A program made the translations under genes and the position numbers. From assembly GCA_029856155.1 (NCBI GenBank), contig JAHQWL010000090.1, positions 1-15,829 of the forward strand: a stretch of DNA of 15,829 bases, in the 5' to 3' direction. The notes below the pieces were generated by a model. That model searched no databases, was not told the DNA's origin, and worked only from the letters and a program-made list of their open reading frames with translations. Origin of the DNA: Promethearchaeia archaeon (GTDB lineage: Archaea; Asgardarchaeota; Lokiarchaeia; Sigyniarchaeales; SOKP01). Below are positions 2,879 to 15,404 of the stretch, piece by piece (positions within the stretch are counted from its first letter, which is position 1; every line of letters starts with the position of its first letter).

Positions 2879-3349
2879 TTAGTCTACATTGACTGAAATT
2901 CCGCATTTATTACATCTCTTTGTGCCTCGGAATAAGGAATTACCGCATTCGGGACAGTGATATCTTTTTTCCTCCTCTTCAACCCATTTTTCAGTTCCTA
3001 ATTCTTTCCATTGAGGGATTGCTCTTAAAATAACTTTTTTACCAACAGGAATAGGAAAACGTTCTATAAATTTACATGGAAAATCATCACATTGATAACA
3101 TCCATCAATTCCTTTACTCTTGATACAATCTCTGATAGGGCATGTTTGACAATATCCAAATACATCCTCCTGCTTTTCTGCAAGACAGCCTGCACATTTA
3201 ATGTCATCAATAGTTTTTGAAAACGGTTTGTATACATCGACAAGTTTTTCTTTAAACTTTAAATTATTATCTCTATCAGCAATATGTATTGCACAGACTC
3301 CACAATATAGCCCGCATGGAGCTAAAAGAGCTTTATTTATATCTGTCAT
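2879..3349 (-). CDS. DUF3795-like Cys-rich metal-binding protein with C-terminal zinc ribbon
   Basis: APCGLYCGVC...CAGC...CQTCPIRDC...GIDGCYQCDDFPC follows the DUF3795 pattern. C-terminal CPECG-x9-CNKCG. Confidence 0.8.
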   Translation of the reverse strand: MTDINKALLAPCGLYCGVCAIHIADRDNNLKFKEKLVDVYKPFSKTIDDIKCAGCLAEKQEDVFGYCQTCPIRDCIKSKGIDGCYQCDDFPCKFIERFPIPVGKKVILRAIPQWKELGTEKWVEEEEKRYHCPECGNSLFRGTKRCNKCGISVNVD

Positions 3350-3366
3350 TTTATTTTCTCAACCAT

Positions 3367-3741
3367 TTATTTTTTGTAATAAATTCCGTTATTGAATTCT
3401 TTACTTGAATACTTTTTTTTATTTTTTTCCATTTTCTTTATAAATATTTGGCTTAAATCCAAATCTAAAGCATTAATTAAACTTATTAAATAAATAAAAA
3501 CATCGGCTATTTCATCAGAAATATATGATAAAAGTTCCTTATTATTCAAAATCTCTTCCATCGTGTAATCTTTAAAGAGTAATAACTGAGACAATTCTCC
3601 AGCTTCACAATTTATAGCTTGAACTAGGTTTTTAGGAGTGTGATATTGATTCCAATTACGATCTTCAACAAACTTTTTCACTTCTTTTTTAAAAAATGAA
3701 ATATTTGTTCGTAAGTCTTTAACCTCATGATTTTCATTCAT
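3367..3741 (-). CDS. MazG-like all-alpha nucleotide pyrophosphohydrolase (dCTPase DCTPP1/RS21-C6 type)
   Basis: F..DRNWNQYHTPKNL...EAGEL...DEIADVFIYL...KMEKNKKKY; ExxE and ExxD metal-binding motifs. Confidence 0.9.
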   Translation of the reverse strand: MNENHEVKDLRTNISFFKKEVKKFVEDRNWNQYHTPKNLVQAINCEAGELSQLLLFKDYTMEEILNNKELLSYISDEIADVFIYLISLINALDLDLSQIFIKKMEKNKKKYSSKEFNNGIYYKK

Positions 3742-3771: not shown

Positions 3772-4599
3772 TCATTTAAGATTTTTAATAAAATCACAAA
3801 TTAAGTCATTAACTACTTCTTTTCTCTGAGCAGGAGCGAAATGTCCAGCCATATCAATAATATTTAAAGTAGAATTTGGTATCATTCGATGTAATTCTTC
3901 TGACATTTGCTCAGGAGCAAAATTATCAAGTCTTCCACCTATTATTAAAGTAGGGCAACTAATACCTGATGGGTCATATTCCTTTATTTCATGTATCATT
4001 CGGAAAATTTGATCTTCAATTTGCATATATAATTCATCTTTAGTTAATTTTAAACCAGATAACGAATCGGATAAAGCAGTTATTATGTATGGAATGGTTT
4101 TATCTAATATTTTTTCAACAGAATTGGCTAATATTTGTAAAAAATTCATTCTGATAAAATAAGGGAGTAAATTGTAAAATATATTCCTTATGACATTGTC
4201 AATAATGATATATCCCGAATTCAATAGGATAAGAAACTTGATATCCTCAGGATGTTTTACTGCGAATAACTGACCAATCATTCCACCAACTAACGAGTGT
4301 CCTATTATCCCATATTTCTCATTTATCTCTAAATACTTCAGAAGATCTTCTAAATCTCTTATTATATCAAATCTAAGATTTTTTTTTAGGTTTAATTCCT
4401 TAGTGTGCTCACTCCTCCCATGCCCTAATGCATCGAAAGCAATAATACGATAATTTTCTTTCAATATTTTAATTTGTGCCTTGAAAAAAGAAGCCGAAGA
4501 CGCGAATCCATGAAGTAAAATAATGGCACAATTCTTTGAATCTGGGTTAATATTTTCATAGTATAGATTGTAACCCTCTTGGTTCTTGAAATAAGGCAT
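3772..4599 (-). CDS. Alpha/beta-fold hydrolase (putative esterase/lipase/lactonase); likely start at ATG 4599 (MPYFKN...)
   Basis: LLHGF oxyanion motif, FDALGHGRS, GHS nucleophile, GRLD acid, AGH histidine. The MPYF...YNLYY N-terminus is typical of the family, so it is preferred over the TTG at 4680. Confidence 0.88.
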   Translation of the reverse strand: MPYFKNQEGYNLYYENINPDSKNCAIILLHGFASSASFFKAQIKILKENYRIIAFDALGHGRSEHTKELNLKKNLRFDIIRDLEDLLKYLEINEKYGIIGHSLVGGMIGQLFAVKHPEDIKFLILLNSGYIIIDNVIRNIFYNLLPYFIRMNFLQILANSVEKILDKTIPYIITALSDSLSGLKLTKDELYMQIEDQIFRMIHEIKEYDPSGISCPTLIIGGRLDNFAPEQMSEELHRMIPNSTLNIIDMAGHFAPAQRKEVVNDLICDFIKNLK

Positions 4600-4719
4600 G
4601 TGAGTTAGAAACTTATGATATTCTATAATTTTTGAAATAATAGATTCCAAAAATACTTTTCTAAATTTTAAAATTATCAAATTTAGCTCTTTATTGCTTT
4701 AAAAATGTAAAACGAAAAT

Positions 4720-4729
4720 AAAAAAAAAA
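4720..4729 (-). terminator. Oligo-T terminator closing the FAD/Fe-S/kinase operon
   Basis: T10 on the minus strand immediately after the kinase TAA stop (4730-4732). Confidence 0.6.
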
Positions 4730-6193
4730 TTACAAATCTTTGGTTACACGTTTTTTATTCAATGTATCTAGTGTTACTGGCATGAATATTCGTCTTAGTT
4801 TTTTATAAATTTTTACATTCTCTCTTATAGGGCTTATAGTGTCTACAAACTTAACCATTTTATCTATAGCTTCTTCAATACTATTATATTTTTTACACCC
4901 ATAGAACCCCAAAATTGCAGCTCCTAGAGCTGCTCCGTCTTTAATTGCAGGAATTTTAATATCCTTTTCTGTAATGTCAGCAAATATTTGAGCCCAGATA
5001 TTACTATTTATGCCTCCACCATCAACTCCCAACTCTGGTACTTTTACTTTTACCATCCCTTCTAAAAGCTGGATATACATTTGAGCACTTAATGCTGCAG
5101 ACTCCATAATTGCACGGGATACATGTGCCCGAGTATGATTCAAACCTAATCCATGAATTGTACCCTTTCTAAATATGTATAAAGGGATAAATAACAATCC
5201 GTCACTACAAGGAGGAACTTTTTCTGCTTCAGCAGTTAAAATATCATATACATTAGTATTTTGTTGTTCAGATTCTTTAATTTGCCATTGAGAAAAGTTA
5301 TCTTTAAACCATTTGAACATTGTCCCTGTTCCCGGCATTGTACCTTCAATCACCCATTTACCTTTGATAACATGTGGTATGGAAAAAATAGGTATATCTC
5401 CAATACTAGGCATTGGTGCATCAACAACCATATTAACAAATATTCCTGTTCCCGTTGTCACTTTTGCTTGACCATTATTAATAACACCTAAACCTAATGC
5501 TGCACATTGTTGATCTCCTCCTCCTAGAATAATGGGTAAATTCTGTTTCAGTCCAAGTTCTCCAGCAGCCTTACTCGTTAATTCACCTATTTTTTCTCCA
5601 GGGGTATACAATTCAGGTAATAAATCTATATTTATATCGCATGAATCAGCAAGCTTTTCATCCCACTTTAATGTTTCCATATTTAAAAAACTATAAATTC
5701 CGATGGTTGGATCTGAAACAATTTTATCGCATAGTTTCATATAAATATATGAATCGGGAGAAATTATCTTAAAAGCTCTATCATATAAATCTGGCTTTTT
5801 ATTTTTAAACCATAATATCTTCGGAATTGCCCTACGCAAACCTTCCTTTTCTTGGAGAGTCTTAGTATCCGAGATTTCTCTTTCATCCATCCAAGTTAGT
5901 GCAGGGTGTAATATATTTCTCTCTTTATCAATAATTGTTAATGTTAGTCGAGAATAAGTTGCTGCTATACCAATAATATCATTTGGATCAAATGATCCAC
6001 TCTTTACTACTTTATTACAGGTATTTTTAATTCCGTTCCACCAAATAAGAGGATCTTGTTCAGAAACTCCTACTGGTTGTTTTACAATAGGATATTCTTC
6101 ATAAGCTTTAGCAACTTCTTTACCATTAATATCAAATACAATAGTCCTTGCTCCAGTTGTTCCAACATCGAATACACAAATTAAATCACTCAT
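4730..6193 (-). CDS. FGGY-family carbohydrate/polyol kinase (xylulokinase/glycerol-kinase-like; substrate unknown)
   Basis: DVGTTGAR, EQDP, WMDER, PKILW, GGGDQQCAALGLG, TTGTG, RAIMES, VDGGG, QIFADI, AALGAA motifs. Confidence 0.92.
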   Translation of the reverse strand: MSDLICVFDVGTTGARTIVFDINGKEVAKAYEEYPIVKQPVGVSEQDPLIWWNGIKNTCNKVVKSGSFDPNDIIGIAATYSRLTLTIIDKERNILHPALTWMDEREISDTKTLQEKEGLRRAIPKILWFKNKKPDLYDRAFKIISPDSYIYMKLCDKIVSDPTIGIYSFLNMETLKWDEKLADSCDINIDLLPELYTPGEKIGELTSKAAGELGLKQNLPIILGGGDQQCAALGLGVINNGQAKVTTGTGIFVNMVVDAPMPSIGDIPIFSIPHVIKGKWVIEGTMPGTGTMFKWFKDNFSQWQIKESEQQNTNVYDILTAEAEKVPPCSDGLLFIPLYIFRKGTIHGLGLNHTRAHVSRAIMESAALSAQMYIQLLEGMVKVKVPELGVDGGGINSNIWAQIFADITEKDIKIPAIKDGAALGAAILGFYGCKKYNSIEEAIDKMVKFVDTISPIRENVKIYKKLRRIFMPVTLDTLNKKRVTKDL

Positions 6194-6221
6194 ATAACCA
6201 CTTAAATTATTAATTTAAATA

Positions 6222-7496
6222 TTAAAGTAATTTTATTAATAATTCAGATATATCTAATATTTTATATTTTTCTTTTTCGGTTTTTTCAATTCCATATGCT
6301 AATCCTAATTCACATAAAGGGCAAGCAGAAATAAATATGTTCGTTCCCGTTTCTTTTAATTCATTAATTCTATTCCGTGCTTCTCTAATAGCTAAGTCTT
6401 TATCTGCCCAATGAGCTGTACCACTCCAACCACAACAATGTACATACTCTTTGTTATAGGTAGGCTCAATAATTTCTAAATCGGGAATTTTGCTTAGAAT
6501 ACCTCTAATCGATTCTGTATCATTTAAATTTCTTGCAATAAGACAAGGATCATGGATTGTTATCTTTCTATATTCTTCTGGAATACTTCTGTTAATACTT
6601 AGTTTGCCATCATCAAGTAATTTTCTGAAATATTGTACAATATGGAAAATTTCTTTTTCAATTTTAATTCCAACTTTCTCATACCTACTTTTTAAAGTTA
6701 AAATACAACCTGGACAATCTGAAATAATGATTTTTGCCCCAGTAGATATTATAAGGTCCTTATTTTTCATTGCAAATTTTTTCGCTGTCCCTAGATCCCT
6801 TATATTAAATGCTGGTCCGCCACAACATACTTTTTTCTCAAGATTGGTTGAGAATTTGATGCCTGCTTTTATTAAAATCTGGATGTTTGCTTTTATTACT
6901 TCAGGAAATTTCATTGATTCACATCCAATATAATAAAAAACTTCATCATTACCATCGGTTTCTATATTTTCTATTCCTTTTTCTTTATAAGTTTCATATA
7001 TATTGTATTCTTCTATAGTATTGGTTTTGTTCAACTTATCAATCTGCTGTTTACAGTAATCTGGCATCATTCCTTTATCATTTAAATCATCCCTGACAGT
7101 TTCTAAAAGTGATACGACAGAAAATTCAAAAGGACACCAAACTTTACAGTTTTCCTCATTAGAACATTTGTACATGAGATCAACAAAATCTTTATTTTCT
7201 TCTTTCGTTGGATCTATTTTTCCTGTTGTTAAATAATAACCAATTCGAGCCTTATAAGCAGGACTCATTGTTTCGGTTAGAGAACATTGTAGTGTACCAC
7301 AATCAAATCTACACAAATTAGGACAAAGCATACATTTAATTAGATTATCCACATCGGCTTTATAATCCTCTTTTGGATAAAAATTGATCTTTTTTTGCCT
7401 GAAACCCTTCATTATCCTTGATCGGGTTGCTCTATCAGCTCTTTGAATATATGGTAAAATCCAATTGTACTTTTTTAAAGTTTCTTCAACACCCAT
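6222..7496 (-). CDS. Fe-S oxidoreductase subunit with a ferredoxin-like region and two CCG domains (GlpC/GlcF/HdrD-like)
   Basis: CMLCPNLCRFDC and CSNEENCKVWCP motifs, then two complete CCG motifs: C-x31-CC-x35-CPGC and C-x35-CC-x36-CPLC. Confidence 0.92.
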   Translation of the reverse strand: MGVEETLKKYNWILPYIQRADRATRSRIMKGFRQKKINFYPKEDYKADVDNLIKCMLCPNLCRFDCGTLQCSLTETMSPAYKARIGYYLTTGKIDPTKEENKDFVDLMYKCSNEENCKVWCPFEFSVVSLLETVRDDLNDKGMMPDYCKQQIDKLNKTNTIEEYNIYETYKEKGIENIETDGNDEVFYYIGCESMKFPEVIKANIQILIKAGIKFSTNLEKKVCCGGPAFNIRDLGTAKKFAMKNKDLIISTGAKIIISDCPGCILTLKSRYEKVGIKIEKEIFHIVQYFRKLLDDGKLSINRSIPEEYRKITIHDPCLIARNLNDTESIRGILSKIPDLEIIEPTYNKEYVHCCGWSGTAHWADKDLAIREARNRINELKETGTNIFISACPLCELGLAYGIEKTEKEKYKILDISELLIKLL

Positions 7497-8975
7497 TTAT
7501 TTTTCACCTCCTTTCCACACATCTACATAAATTTTACCCGGATTTAGAATATTCTGAGGGTCAAGTAATTGTTTGATTTCTCTTAAAGTTTTTATAGAAC
7601 CACCCAATTCACTCTCCATCCAATGAGATCTATTAATTCCAATTCCATGATGATGAGCAATTGAACCACCTGCTTCTAAGACTGCTTTAATTGTTGTATC
7701 CCAACATTCTTGGTAATATTCTAAATCTGTTTGTTCTTTTCCGGGGGCTCCACCAAAAGTGAAGTAAATTCCTACCCCATTTGGATAAAAATGTGAAACA
7801 TGCGCAGTAATCAATATAATACCTTCCAATTTATTCATTGATTCTAATACTGAATGATAAATATTAGAAGCATTGTCCCATAATGAAGCGATTTCAATAG
7901 TATCAAATACTATTTTATATGTAGGCATTGAAGAGGTCTCTGTAACTCGAAATCTGGTCTCAAACCAATGTTCTACGGGATATGCACCACAGTCTACTCC
8001 AGAGTTTTTTTCACATTTTTCCCTAGTTATGATCTCCTCTAAATCTACTAGTTTTGTATTTCCCTCACAAACAAATATTACCATAACTTTTTCTTTTGCA
8101 TTATCTATATTTGGAAAATGTCTCTTTGTTTCAAATTTATCATATATTCTTATTACCGCGGGATAAATATTTTCTCTTAAAATTTGTCTTGTGGCATTGA
8201 AAGTATCTTCAATGGATGGAAAAGCGTATGAGATTAGTGATCTTTTTTCTGGAGTGGGCCAAATCCTTAGAGTGGCTTTAGTGACGATTCCAAGAGTACC
8301 TTCTCCCCCAATAAATAATCTTTCAAGTTGAGGTCCCGTTGCAGCTCTTGGAATAGTTTTAAAATTAATAATTTCACCTTGAGGTAATACCACCTCTATA
8401 CCTAAGATAATGTCTTCAATCTTTCCATATTTTGTACTGAATTGACCTGCAGCTCGGTGGGCAATCCATCCACCTAAAGAAGAAAAATAAAGAGATTGTG
8501 GTATATGCCCAGCAGTATAACCCTTTTTGTTTAGATAACGTTCTAAATTCATTCCATTTATACCAGTTTGAGCTGTAACTGTTAAATTTTTATCATTTAT
8601 TTCAAGAATTTTATTAAATTTTTTCATATCAAGAATAATTCCACCACGAATTGGTATCGATCCACCAACAACTCCAGATCCCTCTCCATAAGGTATTACT
8701 GGAATTTTCTCTTGATTAGCAAATTTTAAAATCTCTGAGATTTTTTCTACAGTTTCTGGCCACGTTATTAAATCCGGCAATCCAGCAATTTGACCTTGGA
8801 TCATCCAATTGAATCCAATAAGCGTTGTATCATTAGTATAAGCCAAGATGTCAATTTCCTTTGTTGAAACATTATTATTACCTACAATTTCTTTTAATTT
8901 CAATTCTATTTTCTGTTTATCTTTAATCTCACAACGATTTTCTTTATAAATTAATTCAAAGTCTTTAAAATCCAT
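7497..8975 (-). CDS. FAD-linked oxidoreductase of the VAO/PCMH family, alkyldihydroxyacetonephosphate-synthase-like (AGPS/YgcU-like)
   Basis: PYGEGSGVVGG, GHIPQS, SSLGGWIA, STKYGKIED, PRAATGP, GGEGTLGIVT, PAVIRIYD, GIYFTF, HHHGIG, DPQNILNPGK. HHHG (rather than the EHG of GlcD/D-lactate dehydrogenases) marks the AGPS clade. Confidence 0.9.
   Translation of the reverse strand: MDFKDFELIYKENRCEIKDKQKIELKLKEIVGNNNVSTKEIDILAYTNDTTLIGFNWMIQGQIAGLPDLITWPETVEKISEILKFANQEKIPVIPYGEGSGVVGGSIPIRGGIILDMKKFNKILEINDKNLTVTAQTGINGMNLERYLNKKGYTAGHIPQSLYFSSLGGWIAHRAAGQFSTKYGKIEDIILGIEVVLPQGEIINFKTIPRAATGPQLERLFIGGEGTLGIVTKATLRIWPTPEKRSLISYAFPSIEDTFNATRQILRENIYPAVIRIYDKFETKRHFPNIDNAKEKVMVIFVCEGNTKLVDLEEIITREKCEKNSGVDCGAYPVEHWFETRFRVTETSSMPTYKIVFDTIEIASLWDNASNIYHSVLESMNKLEGIILITAHVSHFYPNGVGIYFTFGGAPGKEQTDLEYYQECWDTTIKAVLEAGGSIAHHHGIGINRSHWMESELGGSIKTLREIKQLLDPQNILNPGKIYVDVWKGGEK
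7504..7511 (-). promoter_or_regulatory. Strong Shine-Dalgarno (GGAGGTGA) for the Fe-S subunit
   Basis: GGAGGTGA within the last codons of the FAD gene (KGGEK), 7 nt before the ATG at 7496. Stop and start abut (TAAATG). Confidence 0.8.
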
Positions 8976-9095
8976 AAATATCAGTCGGTTTTTTTTATTA
9001 ACTTATTAAAATGATTAGGAATAATTTATAATTTTAGTCAATATATTAAAGAATAATAAATTCCATAAAAGAAAATGGCATTATGAAGATTTGGG

Positions 9096-10574
9096 TTAAT
9101 AAATTGTCTCTCCAGTAATTTTATCTACTTTTAAATGTCTAAATTTTGCTTTTTCCCTTATTGTTTCTTTACTAGTTGAAATTGTTTCATAAATCTCCTG
9201 TGGAAATAAATATTTTGCTAATTGTTTTATCATTTCTTTCGTTTCAATACAATTATACAACTTCAAACTTTCAAGTGAGTAAAATAATTCACTTACTAAA
9301 TCATAATTCGTATCTGTTGAAAAATCAAGAAGTTCTAAATTTCTATAAATTCGAGATACTATATTTTCTAAGAGATTAAAATCTTTAAGTTTGTCAAGGG
9401 AATTGCTCATGTAATGACAAAAGAGAACGTAATAAGTAGCCTCTGATGAAACAAATCCATCTCGAAATTGTTTTATTCCATCTGGTGATATTCTTAATTC
9501 TATTTCTTCTGTAATTGCTTTTATCTTTTGTTCTAGTCTGCTGATACCTAAATGCTGATACAATTTTAAGATTACAACTAATTGAGATGTTTCTAAATTC
9601 TTTAAATAATTAGGTTCAAAAAATTTAGAATCTGATTTAATGATCTTATTTATTTGTTCAAAACTTAGATATATTTTCATTAATTCTGTTGATTTAAGAA
9701 AATAATAAGCACCATCTGTAGCTTCTATAAGAGGAGATTCGTACCTATCTGTTGCGTCTTCAAATAAATTTAATAAAAAATCTACAATCTTTTTATCATG
9801 AAGATTAACATTAAGTTGCTTAGAAAGATAAATTCCACAATAATAAATATCTGGATTTTTAAGTGTTACTAAAGGAACATCTACTAACCATTCGTCTACA
9901 TTTTCTTCTAAATATGATTTTATGTGAGAGAAATCAAAGATTTTCTGAAGATGGAAGAAATGAATAATTCTGTAGATTAAATATAAAATTTGGAGCTTAA
10001 ACTCGGGCTCTTGAAGATCTTCTAGACCTTCAATTTTCTGTCTACTATTTTGGAATTTATCTATAATTTTTTCTTGAATTTGAATATATTTTGTTAAAAT
10101 TTCTCTCTTTTCAGGTGATCTCTCAATTAAATTTTTTAAGTTCCTCAGTTCCATAATAAATTCAATAGTTAGGAACCCTTCAGATTTCAATTTTAGCATT
10201 AAAGGAGCAACTTTAATATCTATTAGATAGTCGACAATTTTCTCTAAAAAGATTTCATAAATTATTGGTGCGAGTTTTTCTTCATATAATTCTAATATCG
10301 AAGTTATTTCTTCTCTTTCTCTCTCCCGTAATTCTAAAAATGGATCTAAAAACTCTTTTTCTATTTCAAATTCTTCAATTCCAATATCCACAAATAGTTG
10401 TATAAGAAACTTTGTAAGGTCTTCTAATTTTTGGTTGATATTACTCTTAGTTATAAGACTTTCTTCGAAATCACTATTGATTTTATCCCGAAAATATTGA
10501 TCTATGTTATTATAAAAAAGATCAATCTCTTTAAAATATAAATCTAGGATGTTAAATAGTCCTTGTAAAATCAT
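9096..10574 (-). CDS. Hypothetical 492-aa acidic, helical protein; C-terminal half possibly a degenerate prenyltransferase-like alpha/alpha toroid
   Basis: Long uninterrupted ORF with ATG start and no evident TM or catalytic motif. Recurring YY-hydrophobic helices (DIYYCGIYL, GAYYFL, EATYYVL). Confidence 0.8.
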   Translation of the reverse strand: MILQGLFNILDLYFKEIDLFYNNIDQYFRDKINSDFEESLITKSNINQKLEDLTKFLIQLFVDIGIEEFEIEKEFLDPFLELREREREEITSILELYEEKLAPIIYEIFLEKIVDYLIDIKVAPLMLKLKSEGFLTIEFIMELRNLKNLIERSPEKREILTKYIQIQEKIIDKFQNSRQKIEGLEDLQEPEFKLQILYLIYRIIHFFHLQKIFDFSHIKSYLEENVDEWLVDVPLVTLKNPDIYYCGIYLSKQLNVNLHDKKIVDFLLNLFEDATDRYESPLIEATDGAYYFLKSTELMKIYLSFEQINKIIKSDSKFFEPNYLKNLETSQLVVILKLYQHLGISRLEQKIKAITEEIELRISPDGIKQFRDGFVSSEATYYVLFCHYMSNSLDKLKDFNLLENIVSRIYRNLELLDFSTDTNYDLVSELFYSLESLKLYNCIETKEMIKQLAKYLFPQEIYETISTSKETIREKAKFRHLKVDKITGETIY

Positions 10575-10907: not shown

Positions 10908-12335
10908 ATGACAAGTGTTATGTTTGGCACATCCGGTATTCGTCGCGTATTTCAAAATTATAGTGAATCAGATGTTATGTTTACTCCTCAAATGGCTTTA
11001 GATGTGGGTCTTTCGTTAGGAACTTATTTAAATGGTAAAGGTACAGTTGTTATTGGAAAAGATATTAGAACTTCTGCTTTACCGATAGAATATGCTTTAA
11101 TTTCTGGCTTAGTGAGTACAGGTTGTAATGTAAAAACTTTAGGCATAGTCACTACCCCTACTCTAGCAATGTCACAAAAATTTTTAAATGCAGATTGTGG
11201 TGTTATGATTACGGCGTCCCATAATACACCAGAATACATTGGTTTAAAAATTTGGAATCCTTCTGGAATGGGATACATTCCTGAACAAGAAGAAGAAATT
11301 GAAAGGATTTACAATGATAAAAAATTTATAGACATTAATTGGGATGAGGTGGGAAAAGTAACACATGTTGAGGATATTAATGACATCCACATTCAAGATA
11401 TTAATAACCGTATTAAGTTTGATGGAAGTTCATTACAAGTAATACTTGATCCAGGAAATGGAGCTGGATGCGACATAGCTCCAAAATTGCTAAGCACTTA
11501 TAATGTAAAAATTATGACTATTAATGCTCAAATGGATGGTAAATTCCCAGGACGGAATTCGGAACCAAGCAAGGAAAATTTAATTCAACTTTCTAAATTT
11601 TTGAAAACTTCAAATACAAGTGATATCGGAATAGCACTCGACGGTGATGCTGATAGGGTTATATTTTTAGATGAAGATGGAGAAATTGTTGATCCAATTC
11701 GTCTCTTAGCATTGATGGCGGTTGATTATTTAAATCGATATAAAAGTAAAATCTCTAAGGAAAACCTAAAAGTTTCTACTGCGATTAATTCATCGAGCTT
11801 ATTGGAAGATGCTTTAACTCCTCTTGGATGTGAGGTTATTTATACAGAAGTAGGAGATATAAAAGTCGCACAAGCATTAAAAGAACAAGGAGGATTTTTA
11901 GGAGGAGAGACCTCTGGCACATATATTTGGCCTAGAACACATCTTGGACCTGATTCAATTGTCACAATAGCTAAAGTGTTAAGAATGATTGTCGAATCTG
12001 GAAAAACATTACGAGAATTATTAAAAGGAATTCCATTATATCCATATTATAGCACAAACTCTCAATTAAAAAAAGATATACCATTTACAGAGGATATAAA
12101 TCAAAAAATCATTGGTGAAATGCAAGAAGTTTTAGATTCCCTAGGAAAACAAATAAAAAACATCAACAAGATGGATGGCGTAAGGTTTGATTATAATGAT
12201 GGATGGATTTTGATCAGACGCTCAGGAACAAGCCCTTATTTAAGACTTTCAGGGGAATCAAGTGTAAGTGTAGAAGCTTCAAAAGTCTTGAACAAGCTTG
12301 TCCAAGAAAGAATGAAAAAATTAAATTTAATATAA
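10908..12335 (+). CDS. glmM: Alpha-D-phosphohexomutase, probable phosphoglucosamine mutase
   Basis: FGTSGIR, catalytic TASHN, metal-binding DGDADR, sugar-binding GGETSG, phosphate-binding RxSGT. Adjacent to glmS and nagB. PGM/PMM specificity is not excluded. Confidence 0.82.
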   Translation: MTSVMFGTSGIRRVFQNYSESDVMFTPQMALDVGLSLGTYLNGKGTVVIGKDIRTSALPIEYALISGLVSTGCNVKTLGIVTTPTLAMSQKFLNADCGVMITASHNTPEYIGLKIWNPSGMGYIPEQEEEIERIYNDKKFIDINWDEVGKVTHVEDINDIHIQDINNRIKFDGSSLQVILDPGNGAGCDIAPKLLSTYNVKIMTINAQMDGKFPGRNSEPSKENLIQLSKFLKTSNTSDIGIALDGDADRVIFLDEDGEIVDPIRLLALMAVDYLNRYKSKISKENLKVSTAINSSSLLEDALTPLGCEVIYTEVGDIKVAQALKEQGGFLGGETSGTYIWPRTHLGPDSIVTIAKVLRMIVESGKTLRELLKGIPLYPYYSTNSQLKKDIPFTEDINQKIIGEMQEVLDSLGKQIKNINKMDGVRFDYNDGWILIRRSGTSPYLRLSGESSVSVEASKVLNKLVQERMKKLNLI

Positions 12336-12353
12336 ATATTTTCAATTCTTAAA

Positions 12354-12420
12354 TTTTTTTAACTTATTCTCATGGATTTTATACGCTTTAGTATAAAATC
12401 TATAAAGTAAATAAAAAAAA
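12354..12420. terminator. Bidirectional termination region between convergent glmM and nagB
   Basis: Plus-strand T7 (12354-12360), inverted repeat GATTTTATAC-gcttta-GTATAAAATC (12375-12400), and minus-strand T8 (12413-12420). Confidence 0.6.
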
Positions 12421-12437
12421 GTAGCCAATGGTACGTT

Positions 12438-13397
12438 TTATTCTAAGAGATTGATTTTTATTCCTTTTTGTTCTAATAAATTTTGATTAGCTAAAAGTTC
12501 TCGACCGGCAATTTTATCAATAATATAGATTAAATTTCCACCATTTTCCGAGTAAATTTGTCCATAAGAAATGGGGATATTAGGTGTTGGATGATTTAAT
12601 AATGATTTGGTTATTGATTCCGCCTTACGTTCTCCATTAGCTAATAAAATTACATCCCTTGCTTTATAAACCAATTCAGCGCCCATACTAACTGCATACC
12701 AAGGGGAATCTTCTTTTGAAGAGAAATGTCCATCGGTCACTGCATTTTGCATAGTATTATTATCAAGTTTTACTAATAAAACATTACTATCTTTAAAGGG
12801 GATCCCTGATTCATGGAAAGCAACATGACCATGACCACCAACACCTATTATCTGTAAATCAATTCCACCGGCTTTATATATTTTTTGAGCATACCCTTCT
12901 AATATAGTTTTTTTTATCCATTCCAAATAAGCTGAACTTGAATTTTCTTTAATAACAATTGATTTACCCGCTTCTGTACCCAATTCTATCCAGTCTTCTG
13001 GATATGCTTCAAGTTCATTTCTTAATTCTTTCTGATCAATCAAACATCCATAAGGCACAGACGTCTCGATAAATTTTTTATCAAGAAGTGCAAAAAACTC
13101 TTGAATCATAAAATAACAATAACTTTCTGGGTGCAATGTTCTTTGTTGAGAGTTTTCACCAGGAAGACCAATATATTCATCAAGATTAAAACTACGAATT
13201 CGAGTGCTATCAATTTCACCAGAATTAAATGATTCTGCTAAATGTTTATAAAGACCTATCGGTGAATTTCCAGTAGCTAATCCTAAAACAAATTCTTTTT
13301 TTTCCTTTAATCCATTGGCAATCTTATTTTTTACGATCCGAGCTGCTACTTCACTCATATGATTAAAATCTTTTGTTATGATAACCTTGATTGGCAA
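12438..13397 (-). CDS. nagB: Glucosamine-6-phosphate deaminase-like protein (NagB/SugarP-isomerase fold), atypical
   Basis: LGLATGNSP, FNLDEYIGL, HPESYCYFM, GGIDLQIIGVGGHGHVAFHE, AVSMG, LLANGERKA. TTG start. Flanked by glmM and glmS. Confidence 0.8.
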   Translation of the reverse strand: MPIKVIITKDFNHMSEVAARIVKNKIANGLKEKKEFVLGLATGNSPIGLYKHLAESFNSGEIDSTRIRSFNLDEYIGLPGENSQQRTLHPESYCYFMIQEFFALLDKKFIETSVPYGCLIDQKELRNELEAYPEDWIELGTEAGKSIVIKENSSSAYLEWIKKTILEGYAQKIYKAGGIDLQIIGVGGHGHVAFHESGIPFKDSNVLLVKLDNNTMQNAVTDGHFSSKEDSPWYAVSMGAELVYKARDVILLANGERKAESITKSLLNHPTPNIPISYGQIYSENGGNLIYIIDKIAGRELLANQNLLEQKGIKINLLE

Positions 13398-13553
13398 ATT
13401 TTCTTAGCTCATTTATTTATTTTATATTAAAATTTAAACTAAAAAATGGTTAATTTTATATAAAAATTAAGATATGTCATTCTCTCAAATAAACTAAAGC
13501 CAAAAAACCAATAAATGAAATATTAAAATATCTTTTATGCTTTTTATTTCAAA

Positions 13554-15404
13554 ATGTGTGGTATTTTTGGGATAATTACTAATCAGAACAATCTATCCTT
13601 AGGAAAAGTCGTACTTGAAGGAATTAAGCGCTTAGAATATCGAGGATATGATTCCTGCGGAATAGTATCTCTATCTAATTCTAAATTATTCGTTAAAAAA
13701 GATTCGGGAAAAATTGATGAAATTCAAAAAAAAATAAATTTAGCAGAAATCCCAAATAACTCTAAACTTGCCCTTGCCCATACAAGATGGGCAACTCATG
13801 GAGCACCAACTAAAATCAATAGTCATCCACATTTAGATTGCTCTAATAAAATTGCAATTGTTCATAATGGGATAATAGAAAATTTCATAGAATTAAGAAA
13901 AGATCTTATAAACCAAGGTCATATTTTTAAATCTGATACAGATACAGAAGTTATTCCTCATTTAATTGAACAAAAAATGAAAGAAGGTTTAAATTTCAAA
14001 GATTCAATAGTTGAAGCATTGAAGTTATGTAATGGAGCCTATGGACTAGCAGTTTGTCATGCTGACTACCCTGATTTAATTATAGTTGTTAGAAAAGAAT
14101 CTCCTTTAGTAATTGGAATAGAGGAAGGTAAGACTACTTATTTAGCCTCAGATATTCCTGCTTTTTTACCATTAACAAGAAAGTGTTATATTATGGAGGA
14201 TGATGAACTTGCTGTTCTAAAAGCTGGAGAAGTTGATTTCTATGATTTAAAAAATGATAAAAAAATTAATAAAGAATTGCAAGTAATTGAATGGACTATT
14301 GATGCGGCAGAAAAAGGTGGTTATGAACATTTTATGCTAAAAGAAATCTACGAAGAACCAACTGCAATGCAACGAACTCTGAAAATTTCTAAAGATCTAT
14401 TGCAAGTTTTTGCCAATATATTGTGGTCAGCTGAAAACATCTATATTACGGCTGCAGGAACATCTTTTTATGCTTCTTTAGCCGGAAAATTTATTGTATC
14501 AAGATTTTTAGGTAAGTATATTCAAGCAATTGAATGTTCTGAATTTCAAACACAATTGTCTAATTCATTAAAAAATAATTCAGTAATAATTGCGCTCTCA
14601 CAATCAGGTGAAACAATTGATACAGTTGAAGCAATTAGATGGGCAAAAAGTAAAAAGAATGTAAAGATCTTAACAATTACAAATGTAGTAGGATCTACCC
14701 TTACAAGGTATTCTGATAATGTAATTGTAACTCAAGCAGGACCAGAGATTGGGGTGGCAGCAACTAAGACTTATTGTACTCAGGTACTTACGTTAGCTTT
14801 AATTGCATTAGAAATTGCAAAACTAAGAAAAGTTGAATTAGATTCTGATATTGAAAAATATGAAATGGCTTTAAAATCAACTCCTCAGATTATTGAGAAG
14901 TTTTTAAATGAAAATATCGATGAGATTAAAAATATAGTAAACACTTTAGAAAAAAGTGTTCAATTTTTCTTTTTAGCAAGAGGAATATCAATCGCCACTG
15001 CTAAAGAAGGAGGATTGAAATTAAAGGAAGTTGCTTGTCGTTTTATCGAAGGGTATTCTGCAGCCCATGCGAAACATGGACCGATTTCTCTAGTTAGAGA
15101 AGGATTTCCTATTATATTTATAGCACCCCCAGATGAGACATATCAACGTTTAATTGGAAATGTTATGGAATTCAAGGCAAGAGGGGGTAAAATTATTTCT
15201 CTTGTTGTTGAAGACGATAAGACTATTTCAGAATTAAGTGATTTAACAATTCGAATTCCCCAACCAGGAGATAAATATCATAATATATTCAGTCCGATAA
15301 CTTTTACTCCTGCTTTACAATTACTAGCATATTACGCCTCTCTACTTCACGGATTAGATCCAGATAAACCACTTAATTTATCAAAAACTGTTACTGTTCA
15401 TTAG
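13554..15404 (+). CDS. glmS: Glutamine--fructose-6-phosphate aminotransferase (isomerizing)
   Basis: N-terminal MCGI nucleophile, RLEYRGYDS, HTRWATHG, HNGIIEN, DTEV, HFMLKEIYE, SQSGET, GPEIGVAATKT, LKLKE, KHGP, NLSKTVTV. Confidence 0.97.
   Translation: MCGIFGIITNQNNLSLGKVVLEGIKRLEYRGYDSCGIVSLSNSKLFVKKDSGKIDEIQKKINLAEIPNNSKLALAHTRWATHGAPTKINSHPHLDCSNKIAIVHNGIIENFIELRKDLINQGHIFKSDTDTEVIPHLIEQKMKEGLNFKDSIVEALKLCNGAYGLAVCHADYPDLIIVVRKESPLVIGIEEGKTTYLASDIPAFLPLTRKCYIMEDDELAVLKAGEVDFYDLKNDKKINKELQVIEWTIDAAEKGGYEHFMLKEIYEEPTAMQRTLKISKDLLQVFANILWSAENIYITAAGTSFYASLAGKFIVSRFLGKYIQAIECSEFQTQLSNSLKNNSVIIALSQSGETIDTVEAIRWAKSKKNVKILTITNVVGSTLTRYSDNVIVTQAGPEIGVAATKTYCTQVLTLALIALEIAKLRKVELDSDIEKYEMALKSTPQIIEKFLNENIDEIKNIVNTLEKSVQFFFLARGISIATAKEGGLKLKEVACRFIEGYSAAHAKHGPISLVREGFPIIFIAPPDETYQRLIGNVMEFKARGGKIISLVVEDDKTISELSDLTIRIPQPGDKYHNIFSPITFTPALQLLAYYASLLHGLDPDKPLNLSKTVTVH

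Follow-up and report, generated by a model that had tools for sequence, protein, structure and literature searches.

The contig JAHQWL010000090.1 of a Promethearchaeia archaeon (assembly GCA_029856155.1), whose 15,829 nucleotides (nt) were analysed as a whole and are called the window below, carries on its minus strand a single transcription unit of three genes. In order of transcription they encode a flavoenzyme related to alkyl-dihydroxyacetone-phosphate (alkyl-DHAP) synthase (AGPS), an iron-sulfur (Fe-S) protein with CCG domains, and a kinase of the FGGY family. The genes and the features around them are as follows.

7497-8975, minus strand: AGPS-like flavoenzyme of the VAO family, 492 amino acids (aa), putative catalytic subunit (Pfam FAD_binding_4 and FAD-oxidase_C)
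6222-7496, minus strand: HdrD/GlpC-like CCG iron-sulfur subunit, 424 aa, putative electron-transfer partner (two Pfam CCG domains)
4730-6193, minus strand: FGGY kinase, 487 aa, glycerol-kinase-like but with an altered pocket (FGGY_N and FGGY_C)
7504-7511, minus strand: Shine-Dalgarno-like GGAGGTGA before the CCG start, a purine-rich motif kept in relatives
4720-4729, minus strand: T10 tract directly after the kinase stop, likely an archaeal oligo-T terminator
8976-9095, minus strand: 120-nt AT-rich intergenic region upstream of the flavoenzyme gene, presumed from its sequence to hold the promoter
3772-4680, minus strand: alpha/beta-hydrolase gene downstream of the operon, a possible accessory gene (Abhydrolase_1)

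An earlier note on this DNA had taken the three co-oriented genes for one unit, and every signal behind that view was verified, confirming that the three-gene operon is real. The TAA stop codon of the flavoenzyme gene directly abuts the ATG of the CCG gene (TAAATG), GGAGGTGA sits 7 nt upstream of this ATG and occurs once in the window against 0.2 occurrences expected, the gap between the CCG and kinase genes measures 28 nt, and the T10 tract stands at the end. The window has a G+C content of about 30%, and T10 also occurs in it once; because 2.6 occurrences are expected by chance in DNA this AT-rich, the weight of the tract rests on its position and not on its presence. Four related loci (L009, L010, L012 and L013) share the TAAATG junction, a purine-rich Shine-Dalgarno-like run and a stretch of T downstream of the kinase gene, which is T10 in L010 and L012 and shorter in L009 and L013.

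Close homologues (72-86% identity) come from metagenome-assembled genomes of Asgard archaea (Promethearchaeota), the NCBI labels of which conflict (Loki/Thor/Hod/Odin/Heimdall). In a search of 201 sampled genomes from the phylum, all matches above 65% identity were found to belong to a single family, that of the host, designated f1. Gene order in and around the triad is the same in the closed genome CP070831 and on four further contigs. Synteny among such close relatives reflects common descent and not functional linkage, and more distant relatives were therefore examined, namely the neighbourhoods of AGPS-like genes from 20 distant Asgard genomes and 80 loci from named bacteria, among the matches listed.

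An AGPS-like flavoenzyme

The first protein of the operon consists of a VAO/PCMH-type domain that binds flavin adenine dinucleotide (FAD) and a cap domain (Pfam PF01565 and PF02913). Its best sequence matches in the PDB are AGPS structures (2uuu, 1e-65; 4bby, 2e-58), with a D-lactate dehydrogenase (D-LDH) following at 4e-44 (8jdb). AGPS also provided the top Foldseek matches of the AlphaFold2 model (predicted local distance difference test score, pLDDT, of 93), at a TMq of 0.86-0.87 compared with 0.82 for mouse D-LDH. Since the fold leads only marginally (0.86 versus 0.82) and does not by itself separate AGPS from D-LDH, the discrimination between the two types was based on active-site motifs. 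Arg419, Tyr578 and His615-617 of AGPS (mammalian numbering), which we take from the structural literature on the enzyme to be its catalytic residues, align to R276, Y404 and H441-H443 of the flavoenzyme; the Tyr position was fixed from the Y578F mutant 4bca and the Arg from the numbering of 4bby. Across 30 homologues, these positions show little or no variation. In place of the His/His/Glu metal site that GlcD and LDHD carry (H...H and EHGxG), the flavoenzyme has SHxYxxGxxxYF and SHHHG, and a paralogue from the same genome (L002) keeps the metal-site motifs H..NLH and EHGIG. The best NCBIfam match is to TIGR00387 GlcD, with a score of 232 against a cut-off of 568. Judged by its motifs, the flavoenzyme is AGPS-like and not GlcD-like, and its earlier assignment to the AGPS type is thus borne out by both the best PDB match and the retained catalytic residues.

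The resemblance to AGPS is not complete. The N-terminal domain of AGPS is missing, with alignments starting at AGPS residue 131/197, and so is the cap insertion, for which about 25 AGPS residues are skipped after query position 287; the TM-score normalised to AGPS (TMt) is only 0.77. In AGPS, these two elements build a long hydrophobic substrate tunnel, and the reaction of the enzyme is redox-neutral and needs no electron partner. A check of the neighbourhood found no FAR or GNPAT gene in the window or in the syntenic loci. Because an electron partner is constantly present (see below), the FAR/GNPAT context is missing and the enzyme is shortened, the flavoenzyme probably carries out net redox chemistry and not acyl/alkyl exchange.

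The iron-sulfur subunit and the kinase

The second protein contains two full CCG motifs (CXnCCGXmCXXC; C192, C224, C225, C261, C264, C318, C354, C355, C392 and C395) as well as an N-terminal ferredoxin-like module that in f1 has seven cysteines, not eight (CX2CX3CX3C and CX5CX3CP). All ten CCG-motif cysteines and the seven N-terminal Fe-S cysteines are conserved across 23 CCG partners, and all NCBIfam equivalog matches of the protein lie below cut-off. Compared with the CCG protein at L039:6863-8002, the f1 partner (6222-7496) has an N-terminal extension of about 45 residues and a three-cysteine second cluster motif.

The flavoenzyme and the CCG protein are well supported as a redox pair, a pairing that had been proposed for this operon and for which conserved adjacency, a natural fusion and structure prediction all now speak. 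The CCG gene immediately adjoins the AGPS-like gene in 17 of the 20 distant Asgard loci and lies 3 kb off in one more. In one protein of the representative library (P0125, 894 aa), Fer4 and a pair of CCG domains are joined to an AGPS-like domain, and the library also has several proteins with two FAD_binding_4 domains (850-990 aa). Co-folding, which had been suggested as a check on a complex between the FAD and Fe-S proteins, gave a pass: the pair scored 0.94 in three of three runs, and the best of three controls 0.00. For calibration, 58 of 80 solved complexes and 2 of 110 mismatched pairs come up to this mark, which applies only roughly here because the co-fold was made with custom alignments and with FAD as a riding ligand. 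The contacts agree to at least 95% and the partner pLDDT is at least 88. The predicted complex has the first Fe-S cysteine loop (CCG residues 53-65) and the C121 region packed against the FAD-binding loops of the flavoenzyme (96-100, 116-121 and 140-143), and an f1-specific N-terminal helix of the CCG protein (12-39) contacts the flavoenzyme as well. The genome (G000) has seven VAO-type FAD genes, six of which, the triad included, are adjacent to a CCG gene; the five further neighbour pairs were recorded on contigs C85, C47, C98, C51, C82 and C26. More than 20 CCG paralogues are encoded in total, so that the flavoenzyme-plus-CCG design is used repeatedly.

The third protein has both FGGY domains (PF00370 and PF02782), with NCBIfam matches that all fall below cut-off (XylB 253, LsrK 243, and GlpK, TIGR01311, 179 versus 590). 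For Escherichia coli glycerol kinase (GK), we take the glycerol contacts to be R83, E84, W103, Y135, D245 and F270, as described in the structural literature on GK. When aligned to the Thermococcus glycerol kinase, the operon's kinase keeps four of the six contact positions (the Arg, the Trp, the Asp of GDQQ and the Phe of GTGxF); Glu84 is changed to Leu and the Tyr135 loop is deleted. None of the Asgard orthologues has a Glu at position 84 (mostly QRAT), and the bacterial GlpD-linked kinases have Arg-Gly/Ala at this place, in a comparison that leaves out the GC-rich bacterial loci L066, L067, L075 and L088.

Neighbourhoods and parallel pathways

The survey of gene neighbourhoods around AGPS-like homologues that the earlier note had called for revealed a linkage conserved across archaea and bacteria, and the kinase was found to be part of it in distant Asgard and bacterial loci alike. 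Eight of the 20 distant Asgard loci have the layout kinase ... glpA-glpB-glpC-AGPS-like-CCG (tblastn), and the order kinase ... glpABC-AGPS-like-CCG was confirmed by NCBIfam in families f13 and f7. The kinase and flavoenzyme of the window are reciprocal best matches of those in these six-gene (glpABC-type) operons. A gene of the glycerol-3-phosphate dehydrogenase (G3PDH) family lies nearby in 12 of the 20 loci. As for adjacent GlpD/GlpA-family genes, none adjoins the operon in this genome, and its GlpD-type genes are on contigs C94 and C14.

Among the bacterial loci listed, 29 of 80 have a GlpA/GlpD-like neighbour, often together with an FGGY kinase and a major facilitator superfamily (MFS) transporter. 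A Paraburkholderia locus has a GlpP-like regulator near the AGPS-like gene, and Clostridia show a FAD-CCG layout with genes for electron-transfer flavoprotein (ETF) nearby. Two further natural fusions join the flavoenzyme domain with a sugar kinase of the PfkB type (P0209, 825 aa) or with a HAD phosphatase of the Cof type (P0238, 773 aa), which suggests a small, soluble, phosphorylated substrate. In Pseudomonas aeruginosa, PA3026 (AGPS-like), PA3025 (GlpD-like) and PA3024 (FGGY) belong to one operon in the regulon of GliR (PA3027), the only published account of such a module that was found (PMC8151288). In mycobacteria, glpD1 and Rv2251 may be linked; a literature search on them brought up nothing of use. 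A triad in Archaeoglobus, which the earlier note had considered possible, was not among the 80 loci listed, and no search aimed at it was made. In three loci from Myxococcota (L068, L105 and L134), a second VAO-type FAD gene, more distantly related, comes after the AGPS-like one, and L068 and L105, but not L134, have a CCG gene behind it (FAD-FAD'-CCG).

Canonical glycerol genes were found alongside the module. The other FGGY kinase of the genome (L015, contig C1) has all six glycerol-kinase positions. A GlpD/GlpO-type gene lies on contig C94, and contig C14 carries a DAO+BFD / Pyr_redox_2 pair (L137, G000:C14:17000-32000, at 4442-7209; the BFD domain is of the [2Fe-2S] type), possibly a G3P dehydrogenase of the Thermococcus type. 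Five genomes with the six-gene operon were checked, and in two of them glpK and glpA form a locus of their own (G038:C1:1389326-1392420 and G006:C1:721650-724677), with a GlpA above the curated cut-off; in these two genomes the GlpA and kinase of the six-gene operon score lower than the canonical copies. The Glp genes of the operon are therefore specialised paralogues, and the separate loci together with the full-motif glycerol kinase mark the module as a parallel pathway and not the glycerol pathway. The triad as the sole glycerol pathway of the genome is ruled out by L015, the GlpD-type genes and the separate glpK-glpA loci elsewhere. Likewise, the pair does not stand up as "the" non-GlpA dehydrogenase for sn-glycerol 3-phosphate (sn-G3P), as had been suggested: in other Asgard families it shares an operon with GlpABC, two of the five genomes checked have a separate canonical locus, and the host genome has its own glycerol kinase and GlpD-type candidates.

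Divergent from the DAO+BFD gene pair on contig C14 is a gene for a GlcD-type flavoenzyme fused to a 4Fe-4S dicluster domain, followed by one for lactate racemase LarA (L137, 8410-11432). This paralogue of the flavoenzyme (581 aa) has the metal site and an Fe-S tail. Its place beside larA indicates that a conventional lactate module lies elsewhere in the genome.

The alpha/beta-hydrolase gene follows the kinase in L009-L013, and no such gene was found near the FAD-CCG pair in the 20 distant Asgard loci. Further downstream, before purC, are genes for a MazG-like (124 aa) and a DUF3795 protein (156 aa; 2879-3741, minus strand for both), which are conserved in all close relatives. Directly upstream of the operon, a Lys/Glu-rich, apparently helical protein of 492 aa is encoded (9096-10574, minus strand); it has no Pfam or NCBIfam match, and is found in L009-L011 and absent from L012 and L013. 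An amino-sugar gene group adjoins the operon at 10908-15404, with an archaeal GlmM-type phosphoglucosamine mutase gene (plus strand), a NagB-like deaminase of 319 aa in which an insertion splits the family match in two (12438-13397, minus strand), and a 616-aa open reading frame (plus strand) at the place held by a GlmS-type gene (GATase+SIS) in the syntenic loci, a likeness that is positional only.

Interpretation and comparison with known systems

From this body of evidence, we consider it fairly probable that the operon encodes a two-subunit flavin/iron-sulfur dehydrogenase together with its own kinase, and that it serves to oxidise a small glycerol-like compound other than ordinary glycerol or sn-G3P. 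The FGGY kinase would first phosphorylate this compound, using a GK-type pocket in which two of the four hydroxyl-binding positions are changed. The AGPS-like flavoenzyme would then bind the phosphorylated DHAP-like product and act at the carbon next to the carbonyl by means of its Tyr/Arg/HHH site; unlike in AGPS, the outcome would be a net transfer of two electrons to FAD. As adjacency, fusion and co-fold suggest, these electrons would exit through the N-terminal [4Fe-4S] module of the CCG protein and pass to its two HdrB-type CCG clusters, and from there to a further acceptor. In many other lineages, a neighbouring dedicated paralogue of the GlpABC or GlpD type presumably does the preceding oxidation. 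The interpretation given in the earlier note, in which the kinase product is oxidised by the flavoenzyme and the electrons leave through the CCG protein, is on the whole partly supported.

Several points weigh against our proposal. The retained AGPS residues are also compatible with a non-redox ether or ester exchange. The co-fold pass, roughly calibrated as it is, may reflect likeness to solved flavin/Fe-S complexes. Linkage of the kinase is looser than that between the FAD and CCG genes, being absent or weak in the nearest outgroup families (L031-L033). Because f1 has no adjacent G3PDH-type partner, its pathway may not be the same as that of the six-gene operons. Nor is the f1 CCG subunit an orthologue of the one in glpABC-type operons, which is better matched by other CCG paralogues of this genome; this suggests partner swapping or rapid divergence. 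Finally, deletion of PA3026-PA3024 in P. aeruginosa caused no phenotype on glycerol or Biolog plates (PMC8151288).

Among the alternatives, ether- or ester-lipid chemistry is an unlikely one. Here the kinase would phosphorylate a 1-O-alkyl- or acyl-glycerol, and after oxidation to the DHAP level the C1-O bond would be made or, more likely, broken, in an anaerobic salvage of ether lipids or lysolipids. All AGPS catalytic residues are retained for such a reaction, but the N-terminal domain and cap insertion are missing, and the neighbouring G3PDH-type enzyme of many lineages would provide the DHAP-level substrate, but a redox-neutral exchange would have no need of a constant electron-transfer partner. 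The kinase changes (Glu84 and the Tyr135 loop) could make room for a substituent; the PfkB and Cof-type fusions, as well as the context of a short-chain dehydrogenase/reductase (SDR) and an MFS transporter in E. coli, point instead to soluble small molecules. An alpha/beta-hydrolase gene does follow the operon in f1, but this linkage is limited to close relatives, and no FAR or GNPAT genes are nearby. More in favour of lipids is the co-regulation of the P. aeruginosa counterpart with a phospholipase C and a lipid kinase (PMC8151288). A bearing of the operon on the origin of eukaryotic ether lipids, which had been raised earlier, is not upheld: in addition to the missing FAR/GNPAT context and N-terminal domain, a preprint reports that AGPS phylogeny is uninformative and that there is no plasmalogen pathway in Archaea.

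It is likewise improbable that the pair is a plain glycerol-phosphate dehydrogenase of a new type, for sn-G3P or for sn-glycerol 1-phosphate (sn-G1P), which in f1 might run in reverse to make G1P. The sites of AGPS-family enzymes bind a DHAP moiety and the pair is embedded in glp operons, but with GlpABC in the same operon a second G3P dehydrogenase would be redundant, and GlpD-type candidates lie elsewhere in the genome. The altered kinase pocket could shift prochiral selectivity, which brings in the question of sn-G1P. The genome is 97% complete and has a gene for GGGP synthase (C44:94148-94792, 185 bits). A search of it for the G1P dehydrogenase EgsA with PF13685 matched only generic iron alcohol dehydrogenases, and two real Asgard EgsA queries yielded nothing credible. 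With the profile and threshold used, EgsA was detected in none of the genomes sampled from f1 (0 of 40), f2 (0 of 3) and f27 (0 of 3), nor in those from f15, f17 and f9; it was found in nearly all other families of the phylum sample. The lack of EgsA in the f1, f2 and f27 samples, with GGGP synthase present, speaks for this reading. On the other side is genus g2 of f1 (three genomes 98-100% complete, one 89%), which has neither the AGPS-like gene nor EgsA, yet GGGP synthase was found in all three g2 genomes tested; another source of G1P must therefore exist, and the triad is not a general one. Most other families (f7, f12, f13, f19 and f20), moreover, have both the FAD-CCG pair and EgsA.

For Lokiarchaeota, only a divergent AraM-like candidate has been reported, and biochemistry was called for (PMC6737245). 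On the phylogenetic profile, the EgsA queries and the g2 genomes, the triad was judged an unlikely replacement for EgsA. We regard it as very unlikely that the triad handles the archaeal enantiomer, be it that the altered kinase makes sn-G1P from glycerol or that the AGPS-like/CCG enzyme interconverts DHAP and sn-G1P; if true, a Lokiarchaeial family that has GGGP synthase but lacks EgsA would make its lipid backbone by a flavin/iron-sulfur route. The puzzle is thereby sharpened: f1 has GGGP synthase, a G1P dehydrogenase was not detected in it, and the triad probably does not solve the matter.

A conventional GlcD/GlcF-type dehydrogenase for D-lactate or glycolate beside an unrelated sugar kinase was rejected as a candidate and appears extremely improbable: the fold is nearly as close to mouse D-LDH as to AGPS, TIGR00387 is the best family match though far under its cut-off, the genome has five other adjacent VAO-FAD/CCG pairs and GlcD/HdrD pairs are commonly annotated as lactate or glycolate enzymes in archaeal genomics, but AGPS-type SHxY...Y and SHHHG motifs take the place of the metal site, the paralogue that has this site adjoins LarA in a separate module, and kinases and G3PDH-type genes are repeatedly linked to the flavoenzyme gene in both archaea and bacteria.

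Two-component flavin/CCG dehydrogenases are well known (GlcDEF, GlpABC, Dld-II and LutABC), and to our knowledge none with a catalytic subunit of the AGPS type has been characterised. The gene module recurs in numerous Asgard families and is also spread over bacteria, E. coli (ygcU) and P. aeruginosa (PA3026) among them, with consistent ties to genes of the glycerol-phosphate type. Working out its chemistry would close a gap met repeatedly in glycerol and glycerolipid metabolism and reveal the ancestral chemistry of the AGPS family. Its tractable bacterial counterparts make the question directly testable.

Among known systems, AGPS (EC 2.5.1.26; 2uuu, 4bby) shares with the flavoenzyme the VAO-type FAD fold and the equivalents of the catalytic Arg, Tyr and HHH. 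The flavoenzyme is 92-166 residues shorter (492 aa versus 584/658), nearly always has a paired Fe-S or ETF electron partner, and stands outside any FAR/GNPAT context. Glycolate oxidase GlcDEF and Dld-II have the same architecture of a VAO-fold flavoenzyme with a CCG Fe-S protein, but with the substrate-binding metal site that is missing here. The Myxococcota layout is similar to GlcD-GlcE-GlcF, except that its first subunit is of the AGPS type. The GlpK-GlpABC pathway follows the same logic of a kinase and then a flavin/Fe-S dehydrogenase with a CCG subunit (GlpC); the operon of the window differs from it in having no GlpA or GlpB and a kinase that scores below the GlpK cut-off and has lost two glycerol-binding positions.

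The E. coli ygc cluster (ygcU, ygcE, ygcW, ygcS/yqcE, ygcQR, ygcN, ygcO and ygcP) likewise combines the AGPS-like enzyme with an FGGY kinase, electron-transfer proteins and a GlpP-like regulator. YgcU is 32% identical to the flavoenzyme over its full length and keeps HHHG. The statement in the earlier note that ygcU lies near ygcE proved correct, but the parallel goes no further, as YgcE is only 23% identical to the kinase of the window and not its orthologue, and the partner genes encode ETF and not a CCG protein. Electrons would presumably leave by way of ETF and ETF-quinone oxidoreductase (ETF-QO). A literature search, in which unrelated matches dominated the results, found no functional study of ygcU or ygcE.

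Also similar in composition is the PA3026-PA3025-PA3024(-PA3023) operon of P. aeruginosa, which brings together an AGPS-like FAD oxidoreductase and an FGGY kinase in a glycerol or glycerolipid context. In bacterial loci with the PA3026-type layout (PA3024 itself not included), the kinases have Arg-Gly/Ala at the GlpK Glu84 position; this residue is replaced in the window as well, but by Leu and not by Gly or Ala. The bacterial form has a GlpD homologue as the other member of the pair and no CCG subunit. The Asgard form, which in f1 has no adjacent G3PDH-type gene, shares the AGPS-like flavoenzyme with this GliR-regulon type of module and differs in pairing it with a dedicated CCG Fe-S subunit.

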